From an uncultured bacterium (GTDB taxonomy: Bacteria; Patescibacteriota; Minisyncoccia; Moranbacterales; UBA2206): DNA of 64,000 nt. Every line of letters begins with the position of its first letter. The stretch's first letter is position 1. Made by a program: the position numbers and the translations under genes. The notes beneath the pieces are model-generated. The model saw only the letters and a program-made list of their open reading frames with translations. It did not search any database and had not been told where the DNA came from. Of the stretch, positions 1,956-36,425 are shown one piece after another. The DNA lies in assembly GCA_903841185.1 (NCBI GenBank), contig CAIMIV010000059.1:32442-96441 (forward strand). Direction: 5' to 3'.

Positions 1956-2990
1956 TCAAAAGCCATAGACTGCCTTTCCATTGTTGTGGAAAATATTCTC
2001 CTTAGTAATCCCCCTCTTATTTTTAGGTAGCAATTGAATCGCCTTCTTTATTGCCACAATAGACTGCCAGTGGACATGCGTTGCGCCCTTCGCAAGGTAT
2101 CCATATTTTTCATGGTCATTGACATTAAGCCAATGATACTTATGTTCCGTAACCACTCGCTGACCATGCTCAGGATTCATATACGCAATATACCTCAGCA
2201 TATTTAGCGGCTCATCAGATCCAAAGATTATTCGACTTAAACCAAATGCGTCCAAAGCCATTCCAATAACCTCGCTCGACGGATTCATTGCCGTATCCAA
2301 TACGACCTGATCGAACTTGGCAATCTGCTTGTATGCCTCACTCAGCCCAGACACAGGAATCTTGGGTAATCCAAGATGTGCTAAAACCATAACCAACCTA
2401 GGAAAATCCCTCAATACCTTGATTATGTCTTCAGTACAAGAAGTTACCATCTTTGGTAAGTGCAGAATTATTGGCAGACCTAAATCCTGAGCAACTTCTA
2501 AAATCTCTGGTGGAAAGCATTGATAAATATTGGTTGCGGTAGGATTCACATATAAATAATACATTTTGAGAGCAGCGGCTCTTTTGTGATGCATTATCCC
2601 AGATGTGTATTCAATATCCTCGGGCAGTCCAAAGACTGCAATCCGATCATGACCAGGACTATCATTTAGTAGATAGTCATTAGCCTTCCTGTGATTCATT
2701 CCGCGAAAAATATGGGGGAATCTTAGCTTTCTAACAATCTTGCCTGGGTAAAATTTCTCGTTTAGGATATTTGACTCCATAATCGATGTACTTGGAAAAG
2801 TTGACAGAATTGTACTAATAACCCTTTCCTCCATAAACTCCACATGTTCCGCCAAATTATTGTGTACATGGCAATCTATTATGGAATCAGGAAGCCACTC
2901 CATCAATCTCTTCCGCAAATCAATCTCCATTCTCTTGAAATCTAAAGCATGTGCCAAATACTCTTCATATCTTATCACAAGTGGTATCAT
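1956..2990 (-). CDS. Amidohydrolase-2 family metal-dependent hydrolase (TIM barrel).
   Basis: 344 aa. DCHVH metal-binding motif near the N-terminus, an internal HLPK motif, and a C-terminal IFGSDEPL motif typical of PF04909-like hydrolases. Confidence 0.5.
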   Translation of the reverse strand: MIPLVIRYEEYLAHALDFKRMEIDLRKRLMEWLPDSIIDCHVHNNLAEHVEFMEERVISTILSTFPSTSIMESNILNEKFYPGKIVRKLRFPHIFRGMNHRKANDYLLNDSPGHDRIAVFGLPEDIEYTSGIMHHKRAAALKMYYLYVNPTATNIYQCFPPEILEVAQDLGLPIILHLPKMVTSCTEDIIKVLRDFPRLVMVLAHLGLPKIPVSGLSEAYKQIAKFDQVVLDTAMNPSSEVIGMALDAFGLSRIIFGSDEPLNMLRYIAYMNPEHGQRVVTEHKYHWLNVNDHEKYGYLAKGATHVHWQSIVAIKKAIQLLPKNKRGITKENIFHNNGKAVYGF

Positions 2991-3239
2991 TTCATTGCCC
3001 TCCTGGCATTTTATTGTATAAAGAACATCGCATCACTACCCTACCCGCAGGAGCCAATCCGAACACCTACTTTTTTTAATCTCTTACAGCTTTAATCATA
3101 CTATATATGTGCTTTTTGTAAATTTTAAATGGCTCTATACTAAACAGTGTGGTGGGTAAATTTTAATATTTTTCCATAAAAAAGATGCTCCGAGTAGTTA
3201 AACCACAGAGCATTATTGCATTGTTGAAATGCATTTTGA

Positions 3240-8496: not shown

Positions 8497-9381
8497 TCAC
8501 TCCTCCTCCGAACCATACATTATCAGCCATCTTTTTAGACGACAATTCCCCCAAAATATCCAGACTACCGTGACATAGAAAGCCGCTAGGATGAAGTGAA
8601 ACATGGGGGTGAGAGCCAGGAAGAACATGCCCCCGAAAATCACGGAAAGAATGGCGAAGGCAAACCATTTGCGCGGCAGGGTTTCAAAATCAAATAGATC
8701 ATATTCTATTATCGTGAACACCATCAAGGCCACGAAAAAGAGATTACCCAAAATGAAATAGGGTGAAATTTCGATGTCCCATTTTTCTGCCGCTTTGAGC
8801 ATATCCACCATCTCATAGGCGATGTTCCACAACACAAAAGATGCAATGGCAAAAACCAGCACTTTAATTTGTAATTTGGTTTTATAATAGGCTAGCGGTT
8901 GGCGAAATTTTTGCAGTAGCACCGCTACGGACCCAATGACATATCCCAAATCCAAACAAAGACTACTGACAATTACCCATCCTGATTGATAGGCACAAGT
9001 TTGCGCCTCCACGCTGCCAATGCCCTGACCGCTGGCCACCGCAAAAACCGTCACACCCAAGGGCAGTGCCAAAAGCCCTTTCTTTTGCCAGGTTAGTTTT
9101 TTGCCCGCCAGGTCATAGGAAAAAAAGAGGAAGAAGAGAAAGAAAAAATCCACCAAATTAGACAAGCGAAAAAAAAGATAGCTCGTGTGCACATCACGCG
9201 TCATCCATTGCACCAAATCTCCCATAGTCCACAAAGCGATTATCAGCAGAAAATAAAAAGCATTCCGATTGAGAGAATGTTTGGCATTTTTTCCTAGGAT
9301 GCTAAAAGCGACCATCAGGGTAATGATAATTACCGTACTATAGGAATAATATATAAATAGCGGCGTTTCAAATTGACACAT
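8497..9381 (-). CDS. Stand-alone 7TM sensor-domain membrane protein, a paralogue of the histidine-kinase N-terminal domain at 3697-5448.
   Basis: 294 aa. FIYYSYS..LWTMGDLVQW..FFLFFLFFSYDLAGKK aligns with the kinase segment FIYYSHI..LWSGIDLILW..FTLYFAYVFIEKKD. It has no kinase core. Confidence 0.55.
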   Translation of the reverse strand: MCQFETPLFIYYSYSTVIIITLMVAFSILGKNAKHSLNRNAFYFLLIIALWTMGDLVQWMTRDVHTSYLFFRLSNLVDFFFLFFLFFSYDLAGKKLTWQKKGLLALPLGVTVFAVASGQGIGSVEAQTCAYQSGWVIVSSLCLDLGYVIGSVAVLLQKFRQPLAYYKTKLQIKVLVFAIASFVLWNIAYEMVDMLKAAEKWDIEISPYFILGNLFFVALMVFTIIEYDLFDFETLPRKWFAFAILSVIFGGMFFLALTPMFHFILAAFYVTVVWIFWGNCRLKRWLIMYGSEEE

Positions 9382-26178: not shown

Positions 26179-26282
26179 AGAATATACAAAATTTATTTTT
26201 TATAATTAAAGTTCTCTTTCTTGCACCGCTTTTGCCGGCTCCAGAACTATCACGTAATTTTTAGTGTTTTTCATATTTTCAA

Positions 26283-26897
26283 TTATTTCTCAATAAATTC
26301 CACTTCCCCATTTTTCACTAAGACCGCCTGATCATTAGTCAAGATCCTGATTGGATAATTTGTTTTTTTACTCTCTGTTTCAACTGCTTCCCAATATTCA
26401 TCTTGATAGTGCACAAAAACATTAAAATCAACTAAACCCATGCCGGAAAAATCTTCTATGCCAACCATGTTAGAATCTCCGTCCGTGCCTTTCCATCCGG
26501 CAGTTTCAATCGTTGGTCCGGCGATGATGCTGCCGGCGCTGACGCCGATATAAATCACACCTTCTTCAATTAAATCTTTGACTACTTTATCAAAACCACT
26601 TTCCCGAACGCACTTCAAAAGAAAGAACGTGTTTCCACCTTGGACGTAGATAATATCTTTGTCGGCAAGTGCTTTGCGAAGTTCATGCTCATCCCTGCCT
26701 TCAATGTCAATCTCCTCAACCTGCAATCCCAACTCAGCCATAGCAGCTCTTTCATTTTCTACATACGAAATATCCTCCTCAACTTTTGAAGCGGTGATGA
26801 TGTGCGCCAATTTAATTTGCCCAGCCGGCTTGGGAAGAATTTTCAAAATTTCTTCCCTCATATTCATCCCGGCTGAAGTTAGCAGAATTGTTTTCAT
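26283..26897 (-). CDS. Peptidase S51 (dipeptidase E-like).
   Basis: 204 aa, YVQGGNTFFLLK .. GVSAGSII, with the S51 catalytic Ser in GxSAG. Confidence 0.7.
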   Translation of the reverse strand: MKTILLTSAGMNMREEILKILPKPAGQIKLAHIITASKVEEDISYVENERAAMAELGLQVEEIDIEGRDEHELRKALADKDIIYVQGGNTFFLLKCVRESGFDKVVKDLIEEGVIYIGVSAGSIIAGPTIETAGWKGTDGDSNMVGIEDFSGMGLVDFNVFVHYQDEYWEAVETESKKTNYPIRILTNDQAVLVKNGEVEFIEK

Positions 26898-29717: not shown

Positions 29718-30419
29718 TTAATTTTTATCCCGCAGATTTTTTCTTTGATTATACAATCTCTCCGTGAAACCGCCTTGATCTAAAAATTCTTCGCTTAATT
29801 TTTTAAGTTGGCGGTCAAGAAGATAATTCGTTTGATGGATGAGACAAATGAGAACATTGGCGGCAAGTTCTGAGTTTTTTAGATAAGTCTCATAGGTCAT
29901 ATAAGACCTATTTTGAGTATAGGCCAAATTGCGAACTGTTTTTGCCTCTTGTGATTCTTTCGCCCACATAATCAAACCACGTTGACGCAAAAAATCCTCA
30001 TAATCAATCAACAGCTCTTCCAGACTTGCCCGCGCCACGCTGGTCAATTTTATTTCCGTCTTTTTTGAAGTTCCTGCCGCCTGACTGCCCTCGGCAATGT
30101 TTTGTCGGCCACTTCTGGCGGCTTGCACCATTTGATCAGTCGTTCGACTTCGCCTATCAACAAAGGCATCACAAAATTTCACCGTCAAGTCATAGACCAA
30201 AGTTGACATCTGATATGACTGCAAATTACGATAACCGCCATGCGTAAAAAACAACCCATCTTTATTGGACGAATTGGACGCATAGGACGAATCACAATTT
30301 ACCTTATTAGTCGTATTAGCCATATCGCAATTATACCACACAATCAAAAAAGAGAGGATTTGAAACCTCGCTTTTTCTAGTAGCTTACTATTCTTTTTTA
30401 TCCTCCAATTTCTCCACAT
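29718..30419 (-). CDS. Four-helix-bundle protein (TIGR02436/Avd/23S-IVS-protein family) with a C-terminal suffix domain. The start may be the internal ATG at 30323.
   Basis: Family hallmark ..YRNLQSYQMSTLVYDLTVKFCDAF..TDQMVQAARSGRQNIAEGSQ..ARASLEELLIDYEDFL.. Confidence 0.65.
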   Translation of the reverse strand: MWRNWRIKKNSKLLEKARFQILSFLIVWYNCDMANTTNKVNCDSSYASNSSNKDGLFFTHGGYRNLQSYQMSTLVYDLTVKFCDAFVDRRSRTTDQMVQAARSGRQNIAEGSQAAGTSKKTEIKLTSVARASLEELLIDYEDFLRQRGLIMWAKESQEAKTVRNLAYTQNRSYMTYETYLKNSELAANVLICLIHQTNYLLDRQLKKLSEEFLDQGGFTERLYNQRKNLRDKN

Positions 30420-30420
30420 A

Positions 30421-30533
30421 TTTTTTTGTTTGTTCGAGTGTTGTTTTTGGATGGTTTTTGGTGGGCGTGGTGGTTGTTATGTAACTAGTTGCTGGACAAA
30501 TTCAGTCGAGGACCGTCCTCGCTAAATAGCTGC
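30421..30533. repeat. Copy A of a roughly 115-bp direct repeat (about 90% identical to copy B at 31076-31190).
   Basis: tttttttgtttgttcgagtgttgtttttggatg..gtgggcgtggtg..gtaacta..acaaatt..cgaggacc.tcctcgctaa. Read on the minus strand it is a CA-rich leader immediately 5' of the four-helix-bundle gene. Confidence 0.6.
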
Positions 30534-30539
30534 TGCTTT

Positions 30540-30576
30540 TAAAAAAGCCTGTCTCATTGAGACAGGCTTAGAGGAG
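30540..30576 (-). terminator. Rho-independent terminator for the 115-aa gene.
   Basis: Minus strand: gcctgtctc-aatg-agacaggc followed by TTTTTT. Confidence 0.55.
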
Positions 30577-30591
30577 TGGAACAAGTTGGCA

Positions 30592-30939
30592 TTATACTGG
30601 CGAATTCGCAAAGCGTTCCGCCCACGCAATCCAACCAGCGGTATCCCTCAAATCTTGCGGGCCACCCTTATCAGGATCGACTTTTATTTCAATCCTATTG
30701 AGAAGCTGTCCCCAGGCAATAAACACCTCTTCCTGAATTGCTTCGATATCAGTAGCAGGTTTTTCTGCTTGAAGGTGTTTGATTATTGGACCAAGCGCTT
30801 CACACCCCTTTGAAAAAAGCATCTTTTGAGCGTGCGATCGCCAAAATCTCGCCCGAAGAGAATGAACGTCATAAACTATATCAGATTCGAATCTCTTGAT
30901 AAGCTCGGGGAAATTCATTTCCTCAACTCTTTTTCCCAT
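30592..30939 (-). CDS. Hypothetical protein, GC-richer than its neighbours.
   Basis: 115 aa, no motif. Has its own leader (repeat copy B) and terminator. Confidence 0.45.
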   Translation of the reverse strand: MGKRVEEMNFPELIKRFESDIVYDVHSLRARFWRSHAQKMLFSKGCEALGPIIKHLQAEKPATDIEAIQEEVFIAWGQLLNRIEIKVDPDKGGPQDLRDTAGWIAWAERFANSPV

Positions 30940-31075
30940 GATGAAGCTCCTTTTTGAAAAGATTTAAAAACCAAGGAATTATGTTTAAGATACTAGTCTA
31001 AGTGAATCATAGTGCCTTGATATTGTCAATGAAAACAGGCATGTCGACATAATAACTATCAACCAGACCACACAT

Positions 31076-31190
31076 ATTTTTTTGTTTGTTCGAGTGTTGT
31101 TTTTGGATGCTTTTTAGTGGGCGTGGTGATTGCTGCGTAACTAATTACTGAACAAATTTAGCGAGGACCTTCCTCGCTAAGCAGTCTTTG
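31076..31190. repeat. Copy B of the 115-bp direct repeat.
   Basis: Aligns end to end with 30421-30533, with about 12 mismatches and one 1-bp indel. Confidence 0.6.
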
Positions 31191-31241: not shown

Positions 31242-31466
31242 TTATTCAGGACCATAAGCTCCTGGTTGATAATCAGAATCAGACTCATTATTTAATTCCT
31301 CATAATAGCAATCTTCACTTTTAGGATTAATATCACACGCAGAAGGTTTCCTTTCTTTGGTAAAATCAGAATATATAAAATATGCCGTAATTATAGCAAA
31401 AAATATTATTGCCATGGCTTCTAAAATATTATGTTTAGTTACTTTCATATTATTATGAATTTTCAA
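31242..31466 (-). CDS. Hypothetical small membrane-anchored protein.
   Basis: 74 aa, one N-terminal TM, an acidic C-terminal tail. Confidence 0.35.
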   Translation of the reverse strand: MKIHNNMKVTKHNILEAMAIIFFAIITAYFIYSDFTKERKPSACDINPKSEDCYYEELNNESDSDYQPGAYGPE

Positions 31467-31623
31467 AATATTTAAAAATAAATCTACTTTAAAACTAGCA
31501 TTTTTTAGCGCAAAAGCAAAGTTTTAGGTTAAAATAGAATCACTCTCGATAGTCACTGGTCTTATTTACATAAAAATTATATTATTATAGGTACATTATA
31601 AAAAATTATACTCAAAATATATT

Positions 31624-32328
31624 ATGGATTGTGTATTCACAGCAAATACGCCAAATAATAAAATTACGCTATTAAAAATTAAGGAAACAAAAAATTCTCA
31701 GAATAATAATTTTTCTGACCTGCTTTTAATATTTCCTGGATCTAGAAAATATTCATTTGATACTGGTTTAAAAAAACTAATGTCTGACAGTGAACTCGTA
31801 TATGAAGATTCTGCAAACCAGCATACTTCTATTCATTACAATCCAGTGGACGATAATATAGTTATCAAAAAAACTTACAAAGATGAATCTCAGCAAACAG
31901 AAAATATATTTCAATTACACAAAAATTCTGGAATGAAAAGAGATAAATTATTTGTGCCAATTTTATTTAGAAGTTACGGAAATACTCACACAGATAAATT
32001 TAAATATGTAGAAAAAGCTAACTACAAAGAAGTGCTGTTGGATTTTTTATACAATCCCGATTGTGATACATTGCAAATTATGTTAGTTGTTTCCTTAATT
32101 GAAAAAGATTATTTTTCTGACATAGAATTTCCAGCCAACTCTATTTCGTATGATTTTAAAAATTTTAAAGTGACTTTAATTTATAAATTTTTCAACAGGC
32201 CATCACTGCCCCAAAGTATAAATTTTACTCCTATGATAAAGACTGGTCTGGATTGGTGGGAAGTAAATAATCTAGTCACGGATATAACACTTTTATACAG
32301 CGAATATTACTTCAAAAAATATAAATAA
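31624..32328 (+). CDS. Hypothetical protein. Very AT-rich and the only plus-strand gene in a 20-kb minus-strand run.
   Basis: 234 aa, N/K/Y-rich composition. Followed by a strong terminator. Confidence 0.45.
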   Translation: MDCVFTANTPNNKITLLKIKETKNSQNNNFSDLLLIFPGSRKYSFDTGLKKLMSDSELVYEDSANQHTSIHYNPVDDNIVIKKTYKDESQQTENIFQLHKNSGMKRDKLFVPILFRSYGNTHTDKFKYVEKANYKEVLLDFLYNPDCDTLQIMLVVSLIEKDYFSDIEFPANSISYDFKNFKVTLIYKFFNRPSLPQSINFTPMIKTGLDWWEVNNLVTDITLLYSEYYFKKYK

Positions 32329-32335
32329 CATGAGA

Positions 32336-32373
32336 TAAAAAAAAGAGCGAGGCAAACGCCTCGCTCTTTTTAA
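32336..32373. terminator. Bidirectional rho-independent terminator, serving both the plus-strand gene and dnaK.
   Basis: A-run, agagcgaggc-aaac-gcctcgctct, T-run. Confidence 0.7.
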
Positions 32374-32379
32374 AGTTTG

Positions 32380-34305
32380 TTATTCTTTTTTCTCTGCTCC
32401 GTCATCCGCGGATGACTTAGGCTCTTCAGGCTTCTCTGTTTCAGCTTCCTTCGCCTCGCCCGTAGCTTCAGCGGAGGCGGGTCCGGCTGCATCTGGAGTT
32501 GGCTGGGATGCCTTGTAGAGTTCTTCCCCGATCTTTTGCGCTTCGGTGGAAAGCTCTTCAGTGGCTTTCTTGATGGCTTCAAAATCTTCGCCATCCTTCA
32601 CCTTCTTCAAGGCTTCCACTTTCTCTTCGACTGGTTTCTTTTTGTCAGCCGAAACTTTGTCTCCGGCGTCCTTCAAAGCTTTTTCGGTGGTGAAGATGAG
32701 AGTGTCGGCCATATTTTTGATTTCCACATTTTCCTTTTTCTTTTTGTCCTCGTCCGCATGCGCTTCCGCGTCTTTCTTCATTCTTTCGATTTCTTCTTTG
32801 GAAAGTCCGGTAGAAGCTTCGATGCGGATGGATTGTTCTTTGCTCGTGGCCTTGTCCTTGGCTTTCACGCTCAGGACACCATTCGCATCAATGTCGAAGG
32901 TCACTTCGATTTGCGGGATGCCTCGAGGAGACGGTGGAATGCCGTCCAAAATAAATCTACCGAGTGATTTGTTGTCTGCAGCCATTTCTCGCTCCCCTTG
33001 CAACACATGGATTTCAACAGATGGTTGATTGTCAGCTGCTGTGGAGAAGGTTTGTGATTTAGCGGCCGGGATAGTCGTATTCCTGTCGATAAGTGGAGTT
33101 CGAATTCCGCCCATGGTTTCAATCCCAAGTGTGAGTGGTGTCACGTCCAGAAGCAGCACATCTTTCACATCTCCTTGTAGCACGCCACCTTGGATGGCAG
33201 CTCCAAGAGCCACCACTTCGTCCGGGTTCACAGAAATATTCGGTTTCTTGCCAAAGAATTTTTCAACTACTTGCAAAACTAATGGCATTCTGGTCATTCC
33301 TCCAACCAAGATCACTTCGTTGATGTCAGCTACAGTCAGTTTCGCATCAGCCAAAGCTTTCTTAGTGGGCTCCAAAGTCTTTTGGACCAGGTCGCCAACG
33401 AGGTCTTCCAATTTGGCGCGAGTCAGTTTCATCACGAGATGCTTTGGACCGTTGGCATCCGCAGTGATGAAAGGTTGATTGATTTCAGTTTCCATAGCAG
33501 TGGAAAGTTCAATTTTCGCTTTCTCCGCTGATTCCTTGATTCTCTGCAGTGCCAAAGGATCTTTTGACAGGTCAACACCTTCTTGTTTTTTGAATTCATC
33601 AATAATCCAGTGGATGAGCACTTGGTCAAAGTCGTCGCCACCTAGATGAGTGTCGCCGTTAGTGGATTTCACTTCCACGGTGTCTTCGGAAACTTCCAAA
33701 ATGGAAATATCAAAAGTTCCACCTCCGAGATCATAGACCGCAATTTTCTCATCTTTCTTTTTATTGAAACCATAGGCCAGAGCGGCTGCGGTCGGTTCGT
33801 TGATGATGCGCAAAACTTTCAGTCCGGCAATTTCTCCCGCTTCGATGGTGGCTTTTCTTTGGGAGTCGTCAAAGTAGGCCGGCACGGTGATGACCGCTTC
33901 GGTGATGGGTTGCCCCAATTTTTCTTCGGCATCGGCTTTCATTTTTGACAAAATCATGGCGGAAATTTCTTGTGGCGTATATTCTTTGCCACCCATCAAA
34001 ATTTTCACCCCTTCGCCGGATTTTACAATCTTATACGGCATAGTTTTCATATCCCGCGCCACTTCGGCGTCATCAAAATGTCTTCCGATCAAACGCTTGA
34101 TAGAAAACAAGGTGTTCTCTGGATTAGTCACCGCCTGGCGTTTTGCCAAAAGCCCGACCAATCTTTCATTAGTTTTTGACATTGCGATCATTGAAGGAGT
34201 GGTTCGCACACCCTCTTTGTTTTCCACAATGACTGGACTGCCCCCCTCCACGATTGCCATCGCAGAGTTGGTCGTACCGAGATCGATACCTAATACTTTT
34301 CCCAT
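32380..34305 (-). CDS. dnaK: Molecular chaperone DnaK (Hsp70).
   Basis: 641 aa. [16 protein letters not shown], and an EEVD-less acidic C-terminus. Confidence 0.95.
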
Positions 34306-36398: not shown

Positions 36399-36425
36399 TT
36401 AGCACTCTGTCAAGTCGAGTGCTAA
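36399..36425. promoter_or_regulatory. CIRCE operator (HrcA binding site).
   Basis: TTAGCACTC-tgtcaagtc-GAGTGCTAA, a perfect 9-N9-9 inverted repeat 89 nt upstream of the hrcA start. Confidence 0.85.

Follow-up and report, generated by a model that had tools for sequence, protein, structure and literature searches.

Whether a four-helix-bundle gene that lies beside a pair of short, nearly identical non-coding repeats betrays a diversity-generating retroelement (DGR) is the question raised by the locus downstream of dnaK in a 64,000-nucleotide stretch of DNA (hereinafter, the window) from an uncultured bacterium of the order Moranbacterales (contig CAIMIV010000059.1). The repeat, which we denote R, is represented in the window by two copies, RA and RB, and the four-helix-bundle gene is denoted 4HB; the related loci in other genomes carry the numbers L006 to L016. 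The original prediction, made from the sequence of the window alone, interpreted the two copies as a duplicated leader module in front of 4HB and of a gene for a 115-aa protein or, alternatively, as the remains of a DGR. We find that R is a new boundary repeat of narrow distribution, located in a recombination hot spot beside the dnaK-4HB gene pair, and is neither a retroelement nor a leader of 4HB. The best explanation of the observations, with a probability that we put at about even, is that R is a lineage- and locus-restricted intergenic repeat which separates gene cassettes downstream of hrcA-grpE-dnaK-4HB, has been spread by recombination, and likely serves as a terminator or insulator.

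The R repeat and its distribution

The two copies in the window, the only ones in the 64 kb and both located at the dnaK locus, are direct repeats that are identical in 99 of 111 alignment columns (~89%) and differ by 11 substitutions (9 transitions and 2 transversions) and one 1-nt indel. The last (3') 39 nt of RA and RB are the same, and this 39-mer, present twice in the window, was not encountered in 100 shuffles. The two ~90%-identical, 115-bp copies that had been reported before are therefore real, although their coordinates were off by a few bases. Each copy begins, at its 5' end, with a palindrome of 23-25 nt that forms the hairpin TTAGCGAGGA-nnn-TCCTCG(A)CTAA and continues with the conserved block AAATTTGTYCAGYAAYTAGTTAC, which is followed by an A/C-rich tract of 62 nt (A 32, C 21, T 5, G 4). 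Outside the hairpin, the remaining ~85 nt of each copy are predicted to be unpaired on the element strand, so that both folding and base counts agree with the earlier description of a conserved minus-strand hairpin followed by a CA/C-rich tract. Among the 15 most C-over-G-skewed 60-nt segments of the 64 kb, the tract is the sole one on the minus, that is, the transcribed strand. Both copies end in A7-T-ATG and both are intergenic; no promoter was evident, by prediction, either upstream of R or within it. The ATG that had been noted after the tract is thus present in the two window copies but is not conserved across the family.

Searches with blastn and with an nhmmer profile built from the copies identified 11 copies and 2 half copies of R in five closely related Moranbacteria-like genomes: two copies in the window, one in L006 (L010 is identical), three in L007, one in L008, and four in L009 (Moranbacteria UBA2282), with one half copy each in L006 and L007. 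Further copies, which the original prediction suggested should be sought in front of other genes, accordingly exist, but are confined to the dnaK locus of these five genomes and are not found only before genes. All copies lie on the gene strand, within ~5.5 kb downstream of dnaK, and all 11 are intergenic, being located after stop codons or between terminators. In 7 of the 11 copies, R begins 0-16 nt past the stop codon of the preceding gene, and one palindrome includes the stop codon itself. The first copy in L006, L007, L008 and L009 directly follows the stop codon of 4HB, on the side of this gene opposite to that in the window.

The 5' edge of R is sharp and coincides with a 25-bp palindrome; the 3' end is variable and ragged. 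Long forms of ~160-200 nt include a second hairpin and a 16-bp palindrome, TTAATTCATGAATTAA, and reach the ATG of LigT, RibD_C or peptidase-S51 genes, all without Shine-Dalgarno sequences. In L006 and in the second copy of L007, the A/C tract is followed by a terminator and a TTGACT-17-TACAAT promoter, then by a block of ~950 bp, and then by a 3' half copy of R. The repeat thus seems to be split (L006 1298-1384 with 2338-2403; L007 8203-8302 with 9256-9318) around a block that contains a gene for a 96-aa protein and, on the opposite strand, a gene for a 60-aa protein, with the motif CCACCAAAAAC on both sides; such a split could have arisen either when a block was inserted into the tract or when the repeats within the tract recombined.

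Identity amounts to 80-92% between paralogous copies (80-87% within one genome) and to 84-95% between orthologous ones, which indicates that the copies of R are old rather than recently transposed. The closest match of RA, at 94% identity, is the copy in L008, which likewise precedes the gene for the 115-aa protein. Across the family, 83% of the pair cells of the hairpin stem are paired and 17% are unpaired, with no compensatory change and no covariation. Neither terminal inverted repeats nor target-site duplications were detected at the aligned ends of R.

The repeat is absent from the more distant relatives that retain the dnaK-4HB adjacency (L011-L014 and L015-L016). When an ancestral R was sought in the 3' flank of 4HB by local alignment, L011, L013 and L015 scored no better than shuffles, and L012 and L016 gave only marginal results. 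An exact 22-mer of the common core had no match in the species-genome set or in the JGI metagenome contigs, the source metagenome being deposited in ENA and the relatives themselves differing inside this 22-mer, and a degenerate 29-nt core pattern matched 2 of 185,579 species genomes (L009 and L010), solely at the dnaK locus, with no match in metagenome contigs and none in viral contigs. A 20-mer from the A/C tract did match three viral contigs; we dismissed these matches as fortuitous because no wider similarity was present. No Rfam 15 family was found on the repeat in the window or in L007, at the gathering thresholds or at permissive ones (E <= 10 / E <= 1), and the literature on PF05635, the four-helix-bundle suffix domain and Parcubacteria repeats contained nothing specific that we could find. 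The closest named relatives of the proteins encoded at the locus come from Parcubacteria and Candidatus Moranbacteria metagenome-assembled genomes. Over the sequences covered by these searches, the R locus is confined to a narrow subclade of Moranbacteria (Parcubacteria, Candidate Phyla Radiation (CPR)).

The recombination hot spot downstream of dnaK

Read on the minus strand, the window contains hrcA, grpE, dnaK, a terminator, an AT-rich segment, RA, the gene for the 115-aa protein with its terminator, RB, 4HB, a serine hydrolase gene, a NUDIX gene and further genes (Table 1). In all eight related loci with an upstream flank (L006, L007, L009, L011 and L013-L016), 4HB directly follows dnaK. 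The place directly after dnaK is often occupied by dnaJ. The genes located between copies of R differ in every genome and encode LigT, MazG, IMPase, S51, NUDIX, RibD_C, DUF4202/HD and small uncharacterized proteins. Homology between the window and L006-L009 extends through 4HB and ends at its stop codon, where the relatives have R and the window has the serine hydrolase gene. The homology between the window and L007 that spans the genes for a 94-aa protein and for DUF4202/HD similarly stops at the end of the DUF4202 gene, the stop codon of which is followed by R in L007 and by an unrelated spacer in the window. The breaks in synteny thus coincide with the 5' edge of R. Conversely, window positions 31189-30519 (RA, the 115-aa gene and its terminator, 672 nt) correspond to L008 1419-2079 with 93% identity, whereas the sequences upstream of this block are a 74-aa open reading frame (ORF) in the window and a truncated 4HB gene in L008. 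The earlier notion of a duplicated non-coding module that travels with genes is borne out by this unit, which occurs in two contexts. We conclude that, in Moranbacteria-like CPR genomes, hrcA-grpE-dnaK-4HB is followed by a hot spot of recombination that is built from small, housecleaning-type cassettes.

The position of RB in front of 4HB is explained by what lies between the two. In L006, L007 and L009, the few dozen nucleotides that separate dnaK from 4HB contain the dnaK terminator and, with its end 6 nt away from the 4HB ATG, a TGnTATAAT element. This string recurs at window positions 30323-30380, preceded immediately upstream by the remnant of another dnaK 3' end that is joined directly to RB. 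In a blastn comparison, window positions 30418-29712 match L006 574-1278, with the match starting inside dnaK. The C-terminus encoded by the relic is of the L006/L009 type and that of the functional dnaK of the window is of the L007 type. Together, the relic, the relic terminator and the TGnTATAAT element at 30323-30414 imply that RB came in front of 4HB through recombination. They also imply that the true start of 4HB is at 30323 and that the annotated 233-aa ORF, which opens at the ATG at 30419 in the repeat, is an artefact of over-extension through the dnaK relic, with which this ORF is in frame-shifted continuity. From the end of RB to the conserved 4HB start there are 91 nt, and 131 nt separate the end of RA from the ATG of the 115-aa gene (30939), so that the copies do not lie immediately 5' of the two genes, as had been thought. 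The TGnTATAAT element is the putative promoter of 4HB, and the 4HB mRNA is probably leaderless because this -10 element ends 6 nt before the ATG.

The arrangement in the window would be accounted for by recombination that involved one crossover inside dnaK and one illegitimate junction, where GGAG microhomology allowed the end of RB to be joined to the 3' end of the resident dnaK. Such an event would have imported the AT-rich segment, RA, the 115-aa gene and RB, and would have placed RB ahead of 4HB by accident. The junction between RB and the dnaK relic itself is directly visible in the aligned sequences.

The 4HB protein exceeds both curated cut-offs of the respective families, with 76 bits for TIGR04258 (cut-off 40) and 34.5 bits for TIGR02436 (cut-off 24), so that its prior assignment to the TIGR02436 type holds; with PF05635, it scores 32.8 bits, just below the cut-off of 33.8. 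It has more than 8,000 homologs, the nearest of which are named "four helix bundle suffix domain-containing protein". Beside an rve-family transposase gene in L008 (431-1421), 4HB is truncated, and in L009 (3181-3352) it carries an internal deletion; the gene is therefore dispensable in some strains.

The product of the 115-aa gene, previously described as a GC-rich orphan, is neither. It has homologs at 96% and 55% identity, and an exhaustive profile search retrieved 125 cluster representatives at E <= 1e-3, which are proteins of ~110 aa that share invariant Trp and Ser positions. The AlphaFold2 model of the protein (41-sequence alignment) is all-helical with a pLDDT of 94; the family has no Pfam match, no sequence match in PDB and, for the model, no significant fold match in PDB (Foldseek). 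The GC content of the gene, 0.43-0.47, is not high compared to that of core genes such as dnaK (0.46-0.50), and the anomaly is the AT-rich stretch, with a GC content of 0.22-0.29 over 31250-32300. The gene does have a terminator of its own, as claimed, and this terminator is retained in L008. The gene is preceded, 40-130 nt downstream of RA, by a predicted promoter-like site and by a Shine-Dalgarno sequence. The predicted promoter overlaps a small ORF of 22 codons whose start codon is the ATG at the RA 3' end; compared to L008, this ORF shows 1 non-synonymous and 2 synonymous changes, too few to judge whether it is coding.

Two other interpretations of the R sequence were considered and rejected. 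A coding repeat lacks a start codon, the indel shifts the frame between RA and RB, and the changes are mostly non-synonymous. An HrcA operator, that is, a controlling inverted repeat of chaperone expression (CIRCE), is suggested by the TTAGC...GCTAA palindrome, but the spacing of the arms is unlike that of CIRCE, and a perfect CIRCE is found upstream of hrcA (36399-36425; TTAGCACTC-N9-GAGTGCTAA). The latter indicates that the heat-shock operon retains canonical HrcA control in this CPR genome.

Several further features of the locus are worth recording. The AT-rich segment is probably foreign DNA; its 234-aa and 74-aa ORFs have no family match. A second common intergenic module, GCTAAAAAATGCTAGTTTTAAAGTAGATT, is present at window positions 31481-31509, L007 9901-9935 and L009 ~2986-3028; it has the form GCTAAAAA(A/G)TGCTAGTTTTAAA(G/T)TAGATT, resembles a promoter, and precedes three unrelated genes in the three genomes. 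At window positions 26217-26284, between the genes for peptidase S51 and the 94-aa protein, the beginning of a LigT (2'-5' RNA ligase) gene survives as a relic of 22 codons followed by a stop, which is homologous to L007 9364-9430. In L009, a single cassette between two R copies (297-740) encodes a 147-aa coiled-coil protein with tandem VEDRLVN/VEGRLIN heptad-like repeats and weak similarity to XhlA.

Table 1. Features of the window in and around the R copies
Feature	Position	Strand	Description
dnaK and functional terminator	32340..34305	-	dnaK 32380-34305, terminator 32340-32371; conserved anchor upstream of the variable region
AT-rich segment	31242..32328		absent from all relatives; 234-aa ORF (+, 31624-32328), 74-aa membrane-like ORF (-, 31242-31466)
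Repeat copy RA	31071..31180	-	110 nt; hairpin, conserved block AAATTTGTTCAGTAATTAGTTAC, A/C-rich tract, end ...AAAAAAATATGTG; nhmmer E = 1e-40
Hairpin P1 of RA	31158..31180	-	palindromic TTAGCGAGGAaggTCCTCGCTAA, 10-bp stem; predicted fold; flagged as terminator-like on both strands
A/C-rich, G-poor tract of RA	31071..31132	-	from sequence, RA/RB alignment and predicted fold
Small ORF, 22 codons	31007..31075	-	opened by the ATG at the RA 3' end; MCGLVDSYYVDMPVFIDNIKAL*
115-aa gene	30592..30939	-	Shine-Dalgarno aaaggag; uncharacterized all-helical protein family
Intrinsic terminator of the 115-aa gene	30541..30569	-	canonical, AAGCCTGTCTCaatGAGACAGGCTT then T run; read from sequence; conserved in L008
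Repeat copy RB	30415..30525	-	111 nt; between the 115-aa gene terminator and the dnaK 3'-end relic; nhmmer E = 3e-39
Hairpin P1 of RB	30502..30525	-	palindromic TTAGCGAGGAcggTCCTCGaCTGAA, bulged A; predicted fold
A/C-rich, G-poor tract of RB	30415..30476	-	62 nt; tandem CCA(C/T)CAAAAAC motif; unpaired in the predicted fold
Relic of a second dnaK 3' end (…EKLEDKKE*)	30388..30414	-	27 nt, joined directly to the RB 3' end; alignment A2
Relic of the dnaK terminator	30345..30371	-	GCGAGGtttcaaatCCTCTC then T run; one stem pair lost; homologous to the terminator after dnaK in L006, L007 and L009
Putative extended -10 promoter of 4HB, TGgTATAAT	30330..30338	-	conserved in L006, L007 and L009; ends 6 nt before the ATG
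4HB protein with C-terminal 4helix_suffix domain	29718..30323	-	201 aa; start agrees with homologs P0001 and L006

Possible roles of R

Under the boundary-repeat interpretation, R would act as a termination or insulation module between genes. The GC hairpin, which lacks a U-run, would be a weak terminator or a stem that protects 3' ends, and the unstructured C-rich, G-poor tract would be a Rho-loading (rut)-like site; being repeated, R would in addition supply homology for cassette exchange. The combination of a weak hairpin with downstream Rho-dependent termination, in which the hairpin protects the 3' end, is known from other bacteria (bioRxiv 10.1101/2022.07.21.500918). As expected of a Rho-dependent terminator, R contains an unpaired, C-rich and G-poor 62-nt tract (C 21, G 4) downstream of a stop codon (7 of 11 copies). 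A number of observations weigh against such a role, which we purely infer. Besides lacking a U-run, the hairpin has changed without compensatory substitutions and has decayed in some copies (17% of the pair cells unpaired). RB is located just after a canonical terminator, so that a second terminator would be redundant. At two junctions occupied by R in the relatives, the window has no copy, which implies that R is dispensable, and the region downstream of 4HB is variable also in the relatives without R, so that R is not needed for variability. No rho gene was found in the 64-kb window, and the sample of R consists of five genomes, mostly represented by short contigs, the abundance of which suggests that assemblies break at this locus.

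Because of the absent covariation, the decay, the redundancy and the missing copies, the main rival of the terminator or insulator interpretation is a functionless, decaying spacer. In this case, which we regard as rather unlikely, R would be the former 3' flank of 4HB that was copied along with neighboring genes in a rearrangement hot spot and is slowly deteriorating. Hairpin decay without compensation, the prevalence of transitions among the substitutions, the absence of R from orthologous junctions in the window, the existence of the variable region without R in L011-L016, and the other relics at the locus (the dnaK 3' end, the LigT 5' end and the truncated 4HB genes) are all compatible with this view. 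The spacer would, however, have to be reconciled with the identity of orthologous R copies, which at 84-95% equals or exceeds that of the neighboring coding DNA (83-84%), unexpectedly for neutral sequence, as well as with the sharp 5' edge that repeatedly falls at stop codons and with the extreme base composition. It is improbable, in our estimate, that R is a duplicated 5' leader, that is, an unstructured CA-rich translation enhancer of the tobacco mosaic virus (TMV) omega or CA-repeat type that serves the downstream genes. Both the window and L008 have the repeat together with the 115-aa gene, the long forms reach the ATG of LigT, RibD_C and S51 genes that have no Shine-Dalgarno sequences, and both window copies end in A7-T-ATG. 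This ATG, however, is not a conserved feature of the family; no promoter is evident upstream of or inside R; the predicted 4HB promoter lies 6 nt before the ATG, with the relic terminator between it and RB; the 115-aa gene has its promoter-like site and Shine-Dalgarno sequence well past RA; and in L006 and the second L007 copy a terminator and a promoter intervene between the tract and the next gene. Thus, the leader idea of the original prediction finds no support in the case of 4HB, which in four relatives has R downstream, whereas the adjacency of RA and the 115-aa gene that it noted is indeed maintained in L008.

The arrangement of R as co-oriented direct repeats at a single locus, anchored beside a conserved gene, with cassette content that varies between strains, block boundaries that are sharp at the palindrome and an apparent split around the ~950-bp block in L006 and L007, could also be taken to suggest that R is the target of a site-specific recombinase encoded elsewhere, in an integron-like array or in tandem small integrative elements that share one attachment site. 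We assign a low probability to this possibility as well: no integrase or recombinase gene is present in the 64-kb window (Pfam annotation up to ~63.3 kb) or, with the exception of an IS-type rve gene of L008 that is unrelated, in the related loci, R does not fold end to end like attC, its 3' boundaries are ragged, and the junction between RB and the dnaK relic looks illegitimate rather than site-specific. A more specific and highly improbable version would make the dnaK-4HB locus a gene-capture platform, in which R is an integron-like recombination site without a linked integrase and one- to three-gene housecleaning cassettes are inserted, excised and shuffled by an activity that is supplied in trans or by the Avd-like 4HB protein itself, through binding to the palindrome and the single-stranded A/C tract. 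It is still less probable that R represents a non-autonomous mobile element with intergenic insertion sites, akin to a miniature inverted-repeat transposable element (MITE) or to the REP or Correia elements. The multiple copies of ~110-195 nt, the terminal palindrome and the presence/absence polymorphism at orthologous junctions would fit such an element, but R has neither terminal inverted repeats nor target-site duplications, all copies are at one locus and in one orientation, the copies within a genome are no more than 80-87% identical, and the two genomes with matches in the GTDB species set contain them solely at this locus.

The present finding is mostly a correction, in that an Avd-like gene accompanied by a repeat pair does not amount to a DGR here and the annotated 233-aa ORF is over-extended. 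To our knowledge, the transcription signals and the gene exchange of CPR bacteria are almost entirely uncharacterized. If R were shown to function as a terminator or insulator, or as a site of recombination, it would join the small number of cis-elements that have been defined in these organisms.

Comparison with known repeat systems

The defining parts of a DGR are a reverse transcriptase (RT), a template repeat (TR), a variable repeat (VR) and Avd (PMC10053308). Of these, the locus contains no more than a distant relative of Avd. The resemblance of the locus to such a system consists in a gene of the Avd superfamily of four-helix-bundle proteins beside a ~110-bp non-coding repeat with a ~90%-identical second copy nearby; moreover, in the relatives the repeat directly follows 4HB, as TR follows avd. 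The PF05635/TIGR02436 superfamily, to which 4HB belongs, includes Avd but also many proteins unrelated to DGRs (PMC10053308). The differences are extensive. There is no RT: the precomputed Pfam annotation of the window, which covers up to ~63.3 of the 64 kb, contains no RVT family, in line with what had been noted before, and none was found in L006-L009. RA and RB are not located in the 3' end of any ORF, as also observed earlier, nor is any of the 11 family copies, which moreover exceed a TR/VR pair in number. The mismatches, already described as not adenine-specific, comply with the adenine rule in at most 5 of 11 cases under the best of the four possible assignments of strand and template, and 9 of the 11 are ordinary transitions. 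Finally, the locus shows no population variation, being present in five ENA metagenome assemblies as four contigs that are 100% identical and one with a single mismatch in 2,578 nt. An active DGR is already refuted, and the probability that RA and RB are a TR/VR pair of any kind, active or decayed, with the 4HB protein as Avd, is negligible. The original prediction was right to doubt a DGR; its option of a decayed one has no positive evidence beyond the Avd-like fold of 4HB.

Two groups of expression signals resemble R in the composition of the tract. Rho terminators with an upstream 3'-protecting hairpin, or combinations of a weak intrinsic terminator with Rho, share with R the succession of a stop codon, a GC hairpin without a good U-run and ~60 nt of unstructured, C-rich and G-poor RNA; they differ from R in that they are not normally conserved as a sequence family, and in R both termination and its dependence on Rho are what we infer. 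CA-rich and omega-type enhancers are similar to the R tract, which is G-poor, rich in CAA and CCA and unstructured, with an A-run and an ATG at the end of the window copies. Unlike in these enhancers, promoters, terminators or 90-130 nt of other sequence precede the real start codons at the R locus, and the ATG varies across the family.

In its organization, the locus is reminiscent of integron cassette arrays, for example, those with the superintegron repeats of Vibrio cholerae. Both consist of co-oriented genes with a conserved repeat of ~110-130 bp at or after the stop codon, at one locus beside a conserved anchor, with a gene content that differs between strains. In contrast to integrons, there is no attI here, and no integrase or recombinase family was detected in the window, L006, L007 or L009; R lacks the end-to-end dyad of attC (R''-L''...L'-R') and has ragged 3' ends, and one junction or more is of the illegitimate kind. 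The ERIC, REP/BIME, BOX, RUP and Correia repeats are, like R, short, non-coding and intergenic, with a palindromic part, are co-transcribed with genes or lie beside terminators, and have an uncertain role. These repeats, however, are dispersed over entire chromosomes in tens to hundreds of copies, whereas R occupies a few kilobases beside dnaK, in a single orientation.

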